64,000 bases of DNA, taken from assembly GCA_963796275.1 (NCBI GenBank), contig CAWCKY010000002.1, forward strand, positions 288,001 to 352,000. The letters are read 5' to 3'. Within the stretch, counting starts at the first letter, position 1. Every line of letters starts with the position of its first letter. The stretch is from an uncultured Acidobacteriota bacterium. Lineage in GTDB: Bacteria > Acidobacteriota > Blastocatellia > RBC074. The position numbers and the translations under genes were made by a program. Shown piece by piece: positions 5,746-12,478 of the stretch. The notes below the pieces were generated by a model that searched no databases, was not told the DNA's origin, and saw nothing but the letters and a program-made list of their open reading frames with translations.

Positions 5746-8577
5746 CTACGCCGCGCCGCCCACACCTGTTTGCGAGGGCCGGCGGCGTTGCTCTTCCTGC
5801 CGCTTTTGCTCCTGCTGTCGTCGTTGTTCCTCCTGCCGCCTTTGTTCTTCCTGCCGTCTCTGTTCCGAGGCTCTTTGGCGTTCTTCATTCTGTCGTCGCT
5901 GTTCTTCCTGACGTCGTTGGTCCGCCTGACGTCGTTGATCCTCTTGGCGCCTCTGTTCCTCGACTCTTTGGCGTTCTTCATTTTGCCGCCTCTGCTCTTC
6001 CTGTCGCCGCTGATCCTCCTGTCGCCGCTGCGCTTCTTGCTGCCTCTGTCCCTCGGCTCTTTGGCGTTCTTCATTTTGCCGCCTCTGCTCTTCCTGTCGC
6101 CGCTGATCCTCCTGTCGCCGCTGCTCCTCTTGCTGTTTCTGTCCCTCGACTCTTTGGCGTTCTTCATTTTGCCGACTCTGCTCTTCCTGTCGGCGTTGAT
6201 CCTCCTGTCGCCGCTGCTCTTCTTGCTGTCTCTGTCCCTCGACTCTTTGGCGTTCTTCATTTTGCCGACTCTGCTCTTCCTGTCGTCTTTGTTCCTCCTG
6301 TCGTTTTTGCCCCTCGACTCTTTGGCGGTCTTCATTCTGCCGTCTCTGTTCTTCCTGTCGCCTCTGTTCTTCCTGTCGCCGCTGATCCTCCTGTCGCCGC
6401 TGCTCTTCTTGCTGCCTCTGTCCTTCGACTCTTTGGCGTTCTTCATTCTGGCGTTTCAGTTCCTCGGCTCTCTGGTGTTCTTCTTGCCGTTGACGCCCAT
6501 CATCCCGATTCGGCTCTTCCGATCGGCGAGGTATGTCCCTGTCAACCGGTCGCGTCGGTAGGGTCGGTCGAGGAAATTCTTTATCGTCGGGTCGCGCCGG
6601 CCGAGTTTGATGGGGCGCGTCTTTGTCGCCAGGCCTCGTCGGGAGAACGGGCCGATTTGAATTTCCATCGTTAGGCCGTGTGGGCTGAGCCGGTCGTGGT
6701 CCCTCTCCGTCGTTCGGCTGTGTGGGTTGAGCTGGTCGTGGTCCCTCTCCGTCATTCGGCCGCTTGGGCTTCGCCGGTCGCCCCCCATCATTCGGACGGG
6801 TCGGATGGGTTGGACGCGGTACGTCCCCGTCGTCATGCCGCACGGGTTGAGCTGGTCGCGGTATGTCTCTGTCGTTCGCCTGCCCTGGCCCAGCCGGACT
6901 ATCACCATCTCTGCCTTTTGGCCGTGTCGGCAGAGACGGCCGAGCCACATCCACATCGTTTGGCCGCGTCGGTCGAGCCGATCGAGGACCGTCTTTTTCA
7001 ACCACCCGTGTCGGCAGGGACGGACGAGGTGCATCTTTATCGGCTGGTCGCCCTGGTAGAGCGGGACGGGCAACATCTCTGTCCTTCGATCGTGTCGGAT
7101 GGCCCGGATGATTCGGTCTCGCAGGCCGTTGAACTATCGGTGTTTCGAGCCTGCGCCTGATCTCCGGGCGCTCAACAAACTTAGCACGAGTCGGAACCAC
7201 TCGAACCGGTTTAATCTGGTCCCAATTAACCCACGCGGGTTTCGCTGAGTTATTCGACCTTCTGTCGCGTTTAATGGAAATCAGAGCATCACGCGTGACG
7301 ATCGCACGCCCATTATGGAATCGGCTGCCATCCATGCCGCTGACGCCGCCAGGCGCACGGTAGTTCCGTAGAGAGCCGACAGCTCCACGAAATTTGTTGA
7401 ATCGCCCCTTGTGGCTGTGATGCGCCTCACCGGGCGCTAGCGGACACCATCCCAACCATCGATGACCATTGCGATCTCGATCATGACCCCGATGATCCTT
7501 TCTATCACCCCAGCCAAAAAAGGCGACCAGATGCGGGGACCATCTCCACGGCCGGCCGGTGTGAAATTTTACGCTGGGCACCCAGCACCAACGTTTGCCA
7601 TGAAATGCCCATCGCCCATAATGATATGGGAGCCAACCCCACGGCTCATTTGAGATCCAGGTCCAGCCATATGCTGGACTCCACCGCCAATTCCCGTGAC
7701 GGTATGGAGCCCAATCGGTAGAAGCGCCGCGCGGACACCAAACCCGGCCATAATCTGGGGTATCGAGCCATTCGCCGTACACATCCAGCTCGTGGACGCC
7801 GGGCAGGACATCCGGTACATAACTCGGACTTTGATTGCTTTCTGCTCGCGCGAAGAGCTCTTCATCACGCCGATCGTTCCAAATATCCCAACTGTCCTTC
7901 TCATCGACCGAAGCACTTTGAAATGTGCCCGGATCATCGCCCCTCAACACAACTCGCTGTCCCTGATTGATGACGACCGAGTCTATCTCCTGATTGTCGA
8001 TTAAGGCTTCGCCACGCCACACTACGACCTCTGTCGTACCATCTTCGTCTACATTGATTCGATAAAGACCTTCCTTGAGAAAAACGACAGCTACGGTAGG
8101 AGTGTCGACCTCGAAATAGACAGGATCATCGGTACCATCATCCTTCGCATCCTCTATCTGGAATTGTCGTTTATCCAGACTATCGATCCGGAATGTTGCC
8201 GTTCCGACCGACAGCGCTAAACGAATTGTGTCGTTATTGAATTGGGTAAAGCGAAGGTTGGTATTGTTATTTATTCGGACGATGTTGCGACCGCTCAATT
8301 GGATTTCGGCACGCCCATCGGGTCCGCTGTAAAGCTGATCGCTTTCATCGAGCGGGAGGTTCAGTGTCGCGTCGAACCACTCTTCATTCGAATCGTTGGC
8401 CCGCCGGTAGTTGATCTCGCCCTCGATCAGGCTGACACGGGCGACGTGAATGACTGGATCATCAGCCAGAACGACCGACCCGAACGCCATCTGGGAACAG
8501 ATCATTATCACCATCGGCCAAATACTGCAGGCGCGGTGACGGGGGAAATAATCAACAAGTTTGTGAAAAAACTTCAT
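5746..8577 (-). CDS. Exported FecR-like + DUF6600-type protein with Pro-rich and QEEQRR repeat tail
   Basis: ARVSLIEG and FecR-like GRAEIQL; LDVYGEW..TPDYGRVW.P, WAPYRHGNW, EPWGWLPYHYGRW (DUF6600-type). Start set to ATG 8577 (MKFFH) because it abuts the IS end and matches the displaced RBS. Confidence 0.8.
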   Translation of the reverse strand: MKFFHKLVDYFPRHRACSIWPMVIMICSQMAFGSVVLADDPVIHVARVSLIEGEINYRRANDSNEEWFDATLNLPLDESDQLYSGPDGRAEIQLSGRNIVRINNNTNLRFTQFNNDTIRLALSVGTATFRIDSLDKRQFQIEDAKDDGTDDPVYFEVDTPTVAVVFLKEGLYRINVDEDGTTEVVVWRGEALIDNQEIDSVVINQGQRVVLRGDDPGTFQSASVDEKDSWDIWNDRRDEELFARAESNQSPSYVPDVLPGVHELDVYGEWLDTPDYGRVWCPRGASTDWAPYRHGNWRWSPAYGWTWISNEPWGWLPYHYGRWAFHGKRWCWVPSVKFHTGRPWRWSPHLVAFFGWGDRKDHRGHDRDRNGHRWLGWCPLAPGEAHHSHKGRFNKFRGAVGSLRNYRAPGGVSGMDGSRFHNGRAIVTRDALISIKRDRRSNNSAKPAWVNWDQIKPVRVVPTRAKFVERPEIRRRLETPIVQRPARPNHPGHPTRSKDRDVARPALPGRPADKDAPRPSLPTRVVEKDGPRSARPTRPNDVDVARPSLPTRPKGRDGDSPAGPGQANDRDIPRPAQPVRHDDGDVPRPTHPTRPNDGGRPAKPKRPNDGEGPRPAQPTQPNDGEGPRPAQPTRPNDGNSNRPVLPTRPGDKDAPHQTRPARPDDKEFPRPTLPTRPVDRDIPRRSEEPNRDDGRQRQEEHQRAEELKRQNEERQRVEGQRQQEEQRRQEDQRRQEEQRRQEEQRRQNEDRQRVEGQKRQEEQRRQEEQSRQNEERQRVEGQRQQEEQRRQEDQRRQEEQSRQNEERQRVEGQKQQEEQRRQEDQRRQEEQRRQNEERQRAEGQRQQEAQRRQEDQRRQEEQRRQNEERQRVEEQRRQEDQRRQADQRRQEEQRRQNEERQRASEQRRQEEQRRQEEQRRQQEQKRQEEQRRRPSQTGVGGAA
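5770..6490 (-). repeat. Coding tandem repeat: 18-bp units (QEEQRR/QEDQRR) in a ~93-bp higher-order unit (QNEERQRVEGQRQQEEQRRQEDQRRQEEQSR)
   Basis: Visible in DNA (cttcctgtcgccgctg, ctttggcgttcttcatt) and in the protein. Confidence 0.9.
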
Positions 8578-10214
8578 CAGAAACCTCAAAAGGATACCCC
8601 ATCCATAGCAGCCATCTTGGGCGGCTTGGATGGGGAGGAATTTTGAGATCGTGCGCTAGCACGATTAATTCCGTAGCCGTCCGCCTTATGAATCACCCGG
8701 CAGTATCGATGGCTGATCCCCTGGATCGTGCCTGCCGCAGTCTTCACATTGAATGAGCCGCTGCTACGCACAGCGACTCGCCCCACATAGCAGCCGATCT
8801 TTTTGCCGGATCTGACATTTGCCTCGACCATATCTCCGGTTCTGAAGCCTTTGACCGTACGTGGGCCTTTGGCTGATGTGCGTGGAAACCCGTACTTGTC
8901 CATCCGGCACATCTGTCGGGTGTTATGCCCTGTCGCCTTGATCTCCAATGGGATAACTCCGTCGACAACGACCTGTGCGGGCGTTGACTTCCCGACGCAG
9001 GCCGCGTCGATCCAGTGCGCCTTGGGCAGGTCTCGCATCGTCCGGTTGTATTTGGTCAGTCCGCCTGATCCTGTCTCGACCGGCAGTCCGAAGCCCTTTA
9101 ACCGCTCCAAGAGCGCCCACCGCGTTGCATTCAACGCCGCCGCATCCTTCAATGGTTCTTTGACCTGCTGCTCGATCTCAGGAAATCCAAACTCGGCTGC
9201 GGTTCTAGTACCCTTCCGTTGATTGCAACCAGCACAGGCCACCGTCAGATTCGAGACTCGATCACTGCCTCCTCGTGATTCCGGAATGATGTGTTCGATC
9301 TGCAGGGGAATATCTGTCTTTGAACAGTAGGCGCACTTCCGGCCCCACTTCTCAAGCAGATACTCTCTCACCTCGTATCCGGCCAACTCACCCTGCTGAT
9401 ACTCGATTCCGGAGATATCCGGATTCTCCAGCAACTGAGTGTCGAACTTTACCAACTCCATTGAGAGGCCCGAGATCGGATAGAGCCGAGCCAGCCGATT
9501 GACCCACGTCTCAATATTGCTGATCCGGCTCTTGAGCGAAGGTGGCAGCCACCCTTCTGGCCGCCTCCGGTTGAGAAATCGCGGCTTCCGGTATCTGGTC
9601 TTTCTTGAGCGCCGACTGCACCGGATCGCTCTCCGTGCAGCTAAAGCCTGCTTGATTGCCTCTCCTCGGTGCTCAATCTCGGCTGCAAAGACGACCTGTC
9701 CGGATCCCTGATTGACTATCGCCACTCCGGTCTTTCTGGATCCTGGATCCAGCTTGAGCCGAAGATCCGGCACTTGTTCCTCAACCACGCGCTTGAGGAT
9801 GATCGTGAATGGCGCTCTCCTGAAGACTGCGGCCTTGCCTTCCTTCAGCAGGAGTCTGGCCCGTACCGCCGAAGTCGGCGCCAGAGGTCTTCTGTTTTGA
9901 TCGATGACTGCTACTTGCATTGTGAGAATGGCCCTTTCGAGCCGCTGGCATTGCTGCCGTTATGTTAGCCTCGACAATGATGCCTGAGCTTGTTAGTTCA
10001 ACGCACTGGCGATTACCCGTAACCGATATTTAACGCTGAACGACAGTTGCCACGGACTGGCTATCGCATCCGTGGGTGTCTCGGTTTAATAACCTAACTC
10101 AAACATCGTAGCTGCATGCCTTTCGGCTATCGCTTAGTCTGGTCAACCAGGCTCATCGGTGACCCGACAAGCCCCCACTATAGTTGCAAAGCAACTTAGT
10201 GGCGGGTGGGTGAC
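8578..10214. mobile_element. Non-autonomous IS200/IS605-superfamily OMEGA element (iscB + omegaRNA, no tnpA), ~1.64 kb
   Basis: TTCAT (8573-8577) precedes a subterminal hairpin ccccatcca..tggatgggg (8597-8635). The other end has hairpin ccacta-tagttgc-aaa-gcaact-tagtgg and terminal TGAC (10211-10214). Removing the element restores GGAGGAAGCT|ATG. Confidence 0.88.
8586..9920 (-). CDS. iscB: RNA-guided endonuclease IscB (PLMP/RRXRR, split RuvC, bridge helix, HNH)
   Basis: PLAP..ARLLLK.GKA (PLMP), LKLDPGS (RuvC-I D), Arg-rich RRSRKTRYRKPRFLNR, MELVKFD (RuvC-II E), CAYC..IEHIIP.SRGGSD.VSNL..AC..CN (HNH), HWIDAAC (RuvC-III). Confidence 0.95.
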   Translation of the reverse strand: MQVAVIDQNRRPLAPTSAVRARLLLKEGKAAVFRRAPFTIILKRVVEEQVPDLRLKLDPGSRKTGVAIVNQGSGQVVFAAEIEHRGEAIKQALAARRAIRCSRRSRKTRYRKPRFLNRRRPEGWLPPSLKSRISNIETWVNRLARLYPISGLSMELVKFDTQLLENPDISGIEYQQGELAGYEVREYLLEKWGRKCAYCSKTDIPLQIEHIIPESRGGSDRVSNLTVACAGCNQRKGTRTAAEFGFPEIEQQVKEPLKDAAALNATRWALLERLKGFGLPVETGSGGLTKYNRTMRDLPKAHWIDAACVGKSTPAQVVVDGVIPLEIKATGHNTRQMCRMDKYGFPRTSAKGPRTVKGFRTGDMVEANVRSGKKIGCYVGRVAVRSSGSFNVKTAAGTIQGISHRYCRVIHKADGYGINRASARSQNSSPSKPPKMAAMDGVSF

Positions 10215-10230
10215 AGCTTCCTCCGGCCAA
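9921..10230 (-). ncRNA. omegaRNA (HEARO-like): scaffold 10214->9921, 5' guide from flanking host DNA (~10215-10230)
   Basis: Minus strand begins GTCACCCACCCGCCACTAAG..GGGGGCTTG..GTTGACCAGACTAAG..CTACGATG..GACACCCACGGATGC..CCAGTCCGTGG..CATTGTCGAGG, the motif order typical of iscB-associated RNAs; non-coding and directly upstream of iscB. Confidence 0.85.
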
Positions 10231-10767
10231 GTCAAAAGAGCTTCTAACTACTTAATTAGATCGATCAGAACCTGCATCATTCTATTCAGAGCTCACGCCA
10301 TGCCCATGACAGCTTCGAACAGATTAGAAAACAGCTCGAAGCCCCCCCGATTCGCGCGCGGAAAGATTCAGCCCGCTTAGCGGTGCGGGGATGAACAGTA
10401 AAATAGTGGTCGAGGGTTACGCCAATCGGGCAGATGACTAAGATGGACTGTCATTACCTCTGGGTAGCTCGCACGGCGGATATCATTCGGGTCGATGTTA
10501 CGTCTTTCGTACACGGGTGACTGGAAAAAACACGCTCTGTACGGATGAAGGTTGATCTGGTCACACTGCGGTATGAGAGCCGTCGGCTCGTTTACCGGCG
10601 AAATCTTTAATATGTTCCGTTTTATGAATATCGAAACGCCGAAGGCTGAAATTCGCCCCTAAGTCCGTTTATTTTGGTGATTGGGAGCTCATCGGCAGGA
10701 TAGGGCACAAGTAATTTACAGGATTTAAATCCTGAACTGGCGCTTTGTGTAAAGCTCTTTCTACGGT

Positions 10768-11748: not shown

Positions 11749-12384
11749 CCTACTCCCTTTCCAATTAGTTAACATGAATAGTCGAACCAGCGATCTGTTC
11801 TCATCACTTGCTGGCAAGGGTTTCTCCGATTAGCCCTTGATGTTACTTTGGCTTAATGCCAGAACCACCTTGGCCAACAACTGATTTTGTAATAATCATT
11901 CAATGCAGTGGGCACGATAATGAGAAAACGCGGAACTACAGCTTTGAGGGATAGCTGGGTCTCATTGACTTATTCCAACAGAGTTTTCACTCCTTAAAAT
12001 ACATCCCTTTCTAGGTGCCATGATGTGAGATATCACACACGGGTTACTGATATCTCGATTCCGGTTATTCGCGATCGACGAGAATTGCCTAACCTATCTC
12101 AGACGACTGCAGCCGATAGCTACTGGAATCAATGCTTTCGGCTCTGCAGGCTAGGCGCAAGGCTCTAATGTATTCGATCATCCAATCTCTCAAGCTCCAA
12201 GAGCGACAAATATGATTCAGGTGCCTCCCTTTTCGAGAAGACAATCGTTAAAGTTATGAGCAACTGGTTCATCCGCAGCTGAAGAGATGTCATCGATAAT
12301 AATCAGCTTTGATTTTAAACTTTGTTTAAAAAAGTTATTTAGGGATTCAAAGTATTACGGTACGTGGCGGTATTATCATCCGCG

Positions 12385-12440
12385 AAAGAATACTCCATCC
12401 ATAGCGAGCATCTTGGCGAGCTTGGATGGAGATGAATTTC
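12385..12440. repeat. Solo copy of the IscB-element left-end hairpin
   Basis: aatactccatccatagcgagcatcttggcgagcttggatggagatgaattt versus gataccccatccatagcagccatcttgggcggcttggatggggaggaattt at 8593-8643. Confidence 0.8.
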
Positions 12441-12478
12441 GCATCGTGGGCGAATCATTTCGGAGGAACGGGTCGCAG

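Follow-up and report, generated by a model that had tools for sequence, protein, structure and literature searches.

Why would a transposable element lie exactly between the ribosome-binding site of a host gene and the start codon of that gene? Could such a position allow the element to be expressed without breaking its host? Cas9 descends from IscB, a transposon-borne protein whose biology in nature has yet to be fully worked out. Here we analyze an IscB element in a 64,000-nucleotide stretch of DNA (hereafter the window) from an uncultured Acidobacteriota bacterium (Blastocatellia; RBC074; GenBank assembly GCA_963796275.1, contig CAWCKY010000002.1, positions 288,001 to 352,000 of the forward strand). 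The element separates the Shine-Dalgarno (SD) sequence of a DUF6600-family gene from its ATG. A preliminary description, made from the letters of the window without database searches, had reported this insertion, supposed that the element's end supplies a replacement SD, and proposed that the family tends to land at translation starts. The position of the element is confirmed below by empty sites in relatives, and an excess of related elements at gene starts is found in the same genome and in other phyla; the way in which the host gene would be expressed behind the element is offered as a proposal.

An IscB element between a conserved Shine-Dalgarno sequence and its start codon

The minus strand of the window, from 10214 to 8578, holds a 1,637-bp IscB element composed of a HEARO/omegaRNA, a 444-aa IscB and a subterminal hairpin (Table 1). 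The HEARO match (Rfam RF02033) scores 108.8 bits against a gathering threshold of 83 and covers model positions 1-211 of 211; the first base of the model coincides with the first base of the element, 10214, which is also the boundary given in the preliminary description. Pfam places RRXRR at residues 3-177 of the iscB open reading frame (ORF; E 6.5e-68) and HNH_5 at residues 196-245, with further matches to HNH and HNH_4, and the protein resembles the solved OgeuIscB chains (E 1.5e-30) and TbaIscB (E 3.7e-42). The stretches LDPG, IEHI and HWIDA are present in the ORF; we take these to have catalytic roles, and cleavage activity is putative here. A RuvC-HNH protein, an omegaRNA at the boundary, insertion next to a motif and a subterminal hairpin together identify an IscB/OMEGA (short for obligate mobile element-guided activity) element of the ISC (insertion sequences Cas9-like), IS200/IS605 type.

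On the minus strand the 5′ junction reads ..ttggccGGAGGaagct at 10230-10215, then GTCACCCACCC.. starting at 10214. The 3′ junction reads ..CCTTTTGAGGTTTCTG up to 8578, followed by ATGAAGTTTTTTCAC from 8577; the terminus of the element is thus ..TTTTGAGGTTTCTG, and the next bases, ATGAAG, are the start of the DUF6600 gene. The native GGAGG (10224-10220) stands 5 nt from the junction, across the spacer AAGCT (10219-10215). At the other end the iscB stop codon TGA (8588-8586) overlaps an SD-like GAGG (8587-8584) and is separated from the host ATG by 8 nt (8585-8578). No target duplication is visible at either junction.

Are these the true limits of the element? No interruption is present in the orthologous DUF6600 loci of relatives, and in 19/19 of them a GGAG(G) is found 5-9 nt before the aligned ATG (1/19 comes from an unpublished genome and is not relied upon). 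The locus of a genome of the same genus, G001, reads ..gcgcGGAGGaacct ATGAAGATCTTTCACAAGCTT, and 13/16 of its last 16 bases are identical to the left flank of the element in the window; that of G002 reads ..gcgcGGAGGaagtt ATGACGATCTTTCAC, with the gene itself starting ATGACG... The DUF6600 orthologues of these two genomes and of G011 and G020 align from residue 1-2. Both boundaries are exact, because the relatives' loci read GGAGG, 5-9 nt and ATG with nothing between. Taken with the 5′ ends shared by 7/7 copies and the ATGA that follows 13/15 of the 3′ ends (see below), the empty sites mean that the boundaries are supported in three ways. The element is inserted as N/ATGAA (the slash marks the insertion point); the target is not duplicated, and the spacer of a strongly conserved SD is parted from the start codon. 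Removing it restores a GGAGG 5 nt before the ATG, as the preliminary description had reasoned, and the intact loci of relatives show that type of junction. Insertion of the IS200/IS605 type without duplication is likewise borne out by the empty sites and the junction sequence, and every detail that had been observed between 10214 and 8578, including the 8-nt gap from stop to ATG, was correct.

Two other placements of the boundary and the start were rejected. The ATGAA is not part of the element, since empty orthologous sites retain ATGA(A/C/G) right after the SD spacer. The host gene does not begin at the TTG at 8589, which lies inside the element; the orthologues align from the ATG (MKIFHKL, MTIFHNL). 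Where related elements occur in other contexts on soil-metagenome contigs, the match breaks off at 10214/10215 and at 8573/8574. One weak joint, from 8577 to 10264 (one contig, depth 2, side 26, 88% likeness), may be the empty allele of a relative.

Copies of the element and gene starts in the same genome

The genome that was searched (G000; 9.46 Mb, 7 contigs) contains 30 BLAST pieces of the element, and its copies share 88-96% identity. All seven copies that hold the 5′ end start with GTCAC(C/T), next to unrelated upstream DNA. A profile search with the 3′ end returned 26 copies: 15 of a subfamily A, 9 of a subfamily B and 2 that are truncated. Subfamily A ends in TGAGG(T/G)TT plus 2-5 nt (15/15), after which ATGA follows in 13/15 (ATGAA in 11, ATGAT in 2) before the sequences diverge; subfamily B ends in TTTCGCG.., mostly followed by ATAA. 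The proposed target-adjacent motif (TAM), ATGAA or TTCAT on the plus strand, therefore stands, as ATGA is found after 13/15 of the A ends and is kept in the empty sites. The sole full-length iscB of the genome is the window copy, the only one to cover residues 1-444 by tblastn. One further iscB is cut at residue 364, and the remaining copies are internally deleted mini-elements or solo ends. Nine Y1_Tnp matches, at most candidates for mobilizing the window element, occur in the genome, one of them beside a subfamily-B end and with an in-frame TGA. There are 11 TnpB-type matches; as a control, TnpB-bearing relatives gave just one clear case next to an A-type end, which is too few.

How often do these ends lie at genes? 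The TAM ATG opens an ORF of at least 90 aa at 9/15 subfamily-A ends, and 7/15 abut gene starts validated by Pfam. Besides the DUF6600 gene, whose start is confirmed by its orthologues, these are an SDR gene (adh_short domain from residue 7), a glycosyltransferase 2 gene (from residue 7), a glyoxalase (VOC) gene (from residue 5), a Phd/YefM gene (from residue 1), an alpha/beta hydrolase gene (from residue 27) and a DUF6351 gene (from residue 39, after a signal-like segment); the domains of the seven leave no room for an alternative start. The eight other A ends comprise two ORFs without a family (96 and 142 aa), four short ORFs (11-48 aa), one degenerate motif and one ATTAT, at which the ATG of a real gene lies 3 nt further on. 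The genome contains 24,831 ATGAA sites, of which 22.9% open at least 90 codons and 5.5% are the 5′-most start of such a frame. Against a generous expectation of 6.4%, finding 7/15 has a binomial p = 1.9e-5.

Several of the other copies are of interest in their own right. Deleted derivatives that keep both ends, resembling palindrome-associated or miniature inverted-repeat transposable elements (PATE/MITE), occur at C7:908801-908985, C7:1014011-1014504, C7:675439-676368 and C2:398260-398367; joins among them are 1-42 to 1494-1637, 1-337 to 1477-1637 and 1-498 to 1201-1634. One of the derivatives is that at the start of the Phd/YefM antitoxin gene, and another is at the alpha/beta hydrolase gene. 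At C6:2593506-2593894, directly 5′ of a subfamily-B end (L029, L032), a Y1 TnpA match that contains one in-frame TGA is likely an autonomous or formerly autonomous partner of the element family. The motif at this end, ATAAAT, is TTTAT on the other strand, the TAM of a TnpB element in Meers et al. (10.1101/2023.03.14.532601). At C2:48061-48141 (L020) a palindromic hybrid shares one hairpin between an A-type end (..GAGGTTTGG, then ATGAAC) and an opposed, reverse-complement B-type end, so that the profile matches both strands. A solo subfamily-B end with the same hairpin is present in the window itself (12376-12452, minus strand; terminus TTTCGCGGATGATA, then ATAC/ATAAT), just 3′ of the stop of an FtsX-like permease ORF (12479) and not at a gene start. 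Finally, an open 418-aa TnpB-type frame at C6:2821558-2822716 (L012) lies on the opposite strand at a distance of about 0.9 kb from an A-type end, an arrangement that Kapitonov et al. (PMC4810608) describe, with iscB and tnpB in opposite orientations in elements that share one end. Neither this copy nor its relative at C4:80318 is at a gene start.

Association with start codons in other phyla

Is the association confined to this genome? Eighty loci with IscB proteins 48-67% identical were collected from Chloroflexota, Cyanobacteria, Nitrospirota, Acidobacteriota, Bacillota and others, and 79 were usable (L111, which ran off its contig, was dropped). The TAM was placed mechanically where BLAST similarity among loci ends, which was achieved in 36/79. 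At 21/36 of these, its ATG or GTG opens an ORF of at least 80 aa, vs 18.2% of 11,935 control sites in the host flanks of the same loci (p = 8.9e-8); the rule misplaced the TAM in L094, L103 and L127, which were kept in this count and dropped from the tallies of SD and distance. An earlier, stricter version of the placement gave 20/32. In an ATGA-type clade from six Chloroflexota metagenome-assembled genomes (MAGs), with a different downstream gene at each locus, 13/13 elements lie at ORF starts (p = 1.9e-10). Seventeen singletons were read by hand from the hairpin and the ~20 nt that follow: 12 are positive (L060, L063, L064, L065, L067, L071, L075, L077, L105, L113, L116, L138), and five are negative or doubtful (L061, L062, L078, L090, L139). 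A figure of 25/30 mixes mechanical and hand-read rows and is softer.

The ORFs in question are mostly recognizable genes. Pfam families are found in 24/30 of the scanned TAM-start ORFs, and in six of these 30 the domain starts at residue 1-11: a LeuD-type Aconitase_C (residue 1), a NIL domain (residue 3, GTG start), a Lactamase_B_3 (residue 4), a Pyr_redox_2 (residue 5), an AAA_16 (residue 11, GTG start) and a luciferase-like domain (residue 11). The preliminary expectation that the family tends to land at translation starts is thereby upheld, by 7/15 validated starts in this genome, 21/36 in other phyla and 13/13 in the ATGA-type clade. The start-codon landing bias is real and wider than one genome. 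The anatomy of the element, its exact insertion point, the identity of the motif with a start codon and the excess at gene starts are all matters of direct observation.

Two observations on single lineages are added here. Cyanobacterial elements (loci L080-L137) end in ..GAGGAGGTTCG or ..GGAGGT(C/T)T(1-3)AG immediately 5′ of GTGA, and the ORFs that follow begin at that GTG, as in the NIL-domain protein of L098 and the AAA_16 protein of L093; with starts at the TAM GTG, such genes may be mis-started by gene callers that prefer ATG. In the Blastocatellia MAG of L073 (1715-1777, minus strand), a type-P5 twister ribozyme (50.7 bits against a gathering threshold of 37.6) lies about 1 kb upstream of HEARO/IscB.

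Structure of the element end and its distance from the host start

How would the host gene be translated once its own SD has been displaced? The functional half of our reading, namely read-through from the host promoter, a replacement SD and translational coupling, is what we infer from sequence. The organism does use SD sequences of the common type: the 3′ end of its 16S rRNA (..CACCTCCTTTCT; the gene was missed by a regular-expression motif search and located by an Rfam family search) contains CCTCC, the anti-SD CCUCC, and of 3,842 likely starts 37% have an SD-like 4-mer before them, vs 7% when a control window is scored.

The last ~60 nt of the iscB ORF form a strong predicted stem-loop (RNA z -5.4, DNA z -7.6), with a lower stem of 8647-8641 paired to 8591-8585, an internal loop and an upper hairpin at 8635-8597. 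An RNAalifold consensus over 20 ends gives the upper hairpin 13 pairs, 2 of them with compensatory changes. The lower stem, CUCAAAA/UUUUGAG, is present in the minimum-free-energy structure of 11/14 subfamily-A and 3/6 subfamily-B copies, counts that come from single-sequence folds and are weaker than a covariation test; RNAalifold missed this stem because the subfamilies are offset by one alignment column. Compared by eye, with no test, the lower stem keeps its pairing across lineages in varied sequence: CTCAAAA/TTTTGAG, GCGAAA/TTTCGC, GGCGC/GCGCC in Chloroflexota and CTTCCT/AGGAGG in cyanobacterial elements.

The iscB frame spans this structure and stops in its 3′ strand, so a ribosome finishing iscB would open it. 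Proximity of stop and start is common elsewhere. In the ATGA-type clade the iscB stop lies 6-29 nt from the start, and 6-7 nt in 9/13 loci, and in L060, L113 and L116 it overlaps the host start as ATGA or TGATG. The GTGA-type loci show the inverse: SD-like ends in 16/20, with the stop 31-114 nt away. This inverse distribution of SD-like motif and stop distance is suggestive, and comes from two clades only. GAGG is missing from subfamily B, in which the motif, ATAA, could not serve as a start codon.

The proposed replacement SD came through in part. What stood is that GAGG is conserved in 15/15 A ends and lies 6 nt before the ATG; what did not stand is the argument from conservation, as GAGG is explained also by the lower stem and an SD-like motif is found in few ends of the ATGA-type clade. 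A role of the terminal GAGG as a replacement SD is plausible, confounded as it is by structure. The 8 nt between stop and start would be an equally good route to translation of the host gene, and in full-length elements the predicted fold points to coupling as the main route.

The proposed explanation and the evidence against it

Taken as a whole, the locus is best explained by a non-autonomous IscB element that inserted at the DUF6600 start codon and is read through from the host, with the host gene as a downstream cistron, and we consider this account probable. A Y1 TnpA supplied in trans would insert the IscB-omegaRNA element (ISC, IS200/IS605) immediately 5′ of ATGAA, pushing the conserved GGAGG of the DUF6600 gene 1.64 kb upstream. 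The host promoter would then drive a single transcript of 5′ untranslated region (UTR), omegaRNA, iscB and host gene. Meers et al. (10.1101/2023.03.14.532601) report that the omegaRNA overlaps the end of the element away from the TAM and that its guide lies outside the element, and therefore transcription must begin outside; the need for outside transcription in our scheme agrees with theirs, by analogy. Read-through would provide this transcription and would make the host gene a downstream cistron. Its ATG would be served by ribosomes that terminate at the iscB stop 8 nt before it, opening the end structure as they go, by the GAGG that precedes it by 6 nt, or by both.

Why start codons? The ATGA/GTGA target would amount to a start codon plus A, the commonest start context. 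Sites of this kind would be transcribed in sense, would leave no reading frame cut and the coding sequence untouched, and so insertions there would be retained. Insertions elsewhere would be harmful or silent, and a silent IscB could not guard the element against loss by excision. The start-codon bias most likely arises from this combination of a target that equals the start context with retention.

A wider claim can be put forward more tentatively, as a serious possibility just short of probable. The ATGA/GTGA target of the large IscB (ISC) branch may be the start-codon context in general, and its elements may be selfish leader cistrons, placed between ribosome-binding site and start codon in many phyla, transcribed from host promoters and guided by the host initiation region. 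They would hand on ribosomes by stop-start coupling where iscB ends at the boundary and otherwise by an SD in the end structure.

A number of observations weigh against the proposed explanation. As to position, 6-8 of the 15 A ends in this genome lie at other ATGA/ATAA-type sites without a recognizable gene start, and copies inside one genome or clade are not fully independent. The cyanobacterial GTGA-type clade is weakly enriched (8/21, p = 0.058). Here and in L071, L063 and L087 a displaced native SD can be seen clearly beside the 5′ end; in many loci there is none, a mixed result that was not counted as support. As to transcription, a promoter consensus scan upstream of the element found 1 site vs 1.4 expected in shuffles, and since the match is no better than shuffles it is not used as evidence. 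Four sequencing runs were aligned; they cover small shares of the stretch, mostly with soil-metagenome DNA contigs, and stretches without contig cover carry no meaning. Contigs from an RNA library (X20) go from the element ends into other flanks, where DNA carry-over is possible and contigs cannot show a transcript. As to translation, GAGG is the 3′ strand of the conserved lower stem, and because of this its conservation by itself is no proof of SD function. GAG pairs with CUC in the predicted RNA, so the SD would be half-buried. Where subfamily A has CUCAAAA/UUUUGAG, subfamily B has GCGAAA/TTTCGC, a compensating change that is not an SD. The ATGA-type clade, the most tightly tied to starts, has an SD-like motif in 2/13 of its ends.

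Alternative explanations

The covarying lower stem and the ATGA-type clade, at starts in 13/13 loci yet with so few SD-like ends, are what would be expected if survivorship alone were at work. Insertions at ATGA starts would then persist only because they leave frames unbroken and are transcribed, and the element would hold no adaptation for the host gene: GAGG would be a stem strand serving transposition or RNA structure, and translation of the host gene would be reduced or would depend on incidental re-initiation. Three comparisons, all of which rest on few clades, speak against this and would be more in line with selection acting on the junction. SD-like motif and stop distance are inversely distributed between the GTGA and ATGA clades, the iscB stop overlaps the host start in several lineages, and the subfamily with a non-start motif is the one without GAGG. 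We regard survivorship alone as unlikely, if far from negligible.

Could the excess instead be made at insertion? TnpA, or homing by IscB cleavage, might intrinsically favour initiation regions, for instance because strong transcription leaves single-stranded DNA exposed at 5′ ends. Genomes cannot separate insertion from retention, and Meers et al. (10.1101/2023.03.14.532601) leave it open, in their text, whether their orientation bias was ‘preferentially generated or preferentially retained’. However, the upstream flanks of seven copies share no sequence and so reveal no target longer than ATGA(A), and the 6-8 A ends at other ATGA/ATAA-type sites also run counter to a preference for initiation regions as such. 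Such a raw target preference is thus improbable.

That the insertion simply silenced a dispensable DUF6600 gene, the neat geometry being a coincidence of the ATGAA target, is scarcely credible: a strongly conserved SD is indeed now far away, but the 943-aa frame is intact and its domain kept, the copies are not brand new because they have diverged to 88-96% identity, and the same geometry is found at six other validated genes here and at dozens elsewhere.

Comparison with known elements

Does the proposed read-through arrangement resemble known routes to a tolerated insertion? IStrons combine an IS200/IS605-type element with a group I intron, and RNA splicing makes their insertions neutral; like the window element they represent a route within the IS200/IS605 family to a nearly harmless insertion. 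The window element differs from them in that it has no ribozyme, and neutrality would come from its position in the transcript. Neutrality of the IStron type was rejected, as no group I intron is present and HEARO is the only Rfam match in the window. Genes next to an insertion sequence can also be transcribed from its outward or hybrid promoters, and in this case too the end of the element supplies expression signals to an adjacent host gene. There, the signals are transcriptional and stand at variable distances, whereas the signal proposed here is translational, its position is fixed by the target motif, and transcription would flow from the host into the element.

The element class, its target, its TAM and its orientation bias are already in print, and the start-codon reading appears not to be. 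ISC transposons were defined by Kapitonov, Makarova & Koonin in 2016 (PMC4810608), with the targets GT/GG, GT/GA and N/ATGA. The window element shares their 5′-GT(C)A termini, absence of duplication and insertion just 5′ of ATGA, and ISC elements have a TAM-side end in common with opposite-strand tnpB elements, as does the copy at C6:2821558-2822716. Their account differs in treating ATGA/GTGA purely as targets; ‘start codon’, ‘initiation codon’ and ‘Shine-Dalgarno’ have 0 occurrences each in its main text.

ISGst5, the GstIscB element of Geobacillus stearothermophilus (Meers et al. 2023 preprint, 10.1101/2023.03.14.532601), is likewise a non-autonomous IS200/IS605 IscB element with its omegaRNA at the end upstream of iscB. 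Its TAM, TTCAT beside the left end, is the same pentamer as here and lies at the end away from the omegaRNA, and it too has PATE-like derivatives; the two are likened by description. The preprint further reports that the orientation of iscB is biased to that of the upstream gene. It differs in being silent, as far as its text goes, on the TAM as a start codon, on a ribosome-binding site in the element end and on the proximity of stop and start, and ‘start codon’ is found in it once, in a figure legend on distances. Weinberg 2010 (PMC2864571) does not mention HEARO. Full-text literature searches and a 2026 OMEGA review, covering main texts, did not yield the link between the IscB target and the start codon; they show the target, the TAM and the orientation bias, in keeping with the preliminary description, by which such a strategy was not known to have been described.

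Features of the locus

The features of the locus are collected in Table 1. In addition, the 3′ third of the DUF6600 gene (window 5784-6489) contains a tandem array of 93-nt units with sub-periods of 18 and 75 nt, in 10 in-register copies, which encodes an R/Q/E-rich repeat, ..RRQEEQRRQNEERQRVEGQ...

Table 1. Features at the IscB element and the DUF6600 gene; positions are those of the window.
Feature	Position	Strand	Basis or remark
5′ flank	10215..10232	-	Displaced native 5′UTR end of the DUF6600 gene (GGAGG + AAGCT spacer); by position would also be the guide segment of the IscB omegaRNA, by analogy with Meers et al.
omegaRNA scaffold, HEARO RF02033	9959..10214	-	Rfam match; 5′ end common to 7/7 copies
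iscB, 444 aa + stop TGA	8586..9920	-	ORF, Pfam domains, OgeuIscB/TbaIscB similarity
TAM-proximal subterminal structure (left end, TnpA convention)	8585..8647	-	Predicted folds; inside the 3′ coding end of iscB
Element terminus GAGG-TTTCTG	8578..8587	-	SD-like GAGG overlaps the iscB stop, 6 nt before the host ATG
TAM/target ATGAA (TTCAT on +)	8573..8577	-	Host start codon + first two bases of codon 2
DUF6600-family host gene, 943 aa, frame intact	5746..8577	-	DUF6600 E 9.9e-25; orthologue alignment
Promoter-like consensus match	10279..10306	-	~65 nt upstream of the element; might be where read-through transcription begins; chance-level, weak

Implications

What would it mean for IscB if its target is in effect the start codon? 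The published TAM and target, the transcription from outside and the orientation bias would then be tied together. Only the start site would combine sense transcription, non-coding sequence upstream and the ability to pass on ribosomes, and the element would be a splicing-free counterpart of the IStron route to harmless insertion. Natural IscB guides would be predicted to be enriched for 5′UTR and SD sequence. For annotation, the start of a gene downstream of iscB should be set at the TAM codon, even where that codon is GTG. At the level of sequence comparison the evidence for position and enrichment is solid, and it suggests that placement at gene starts is a way for these elements to be expressed without breaking host genes.

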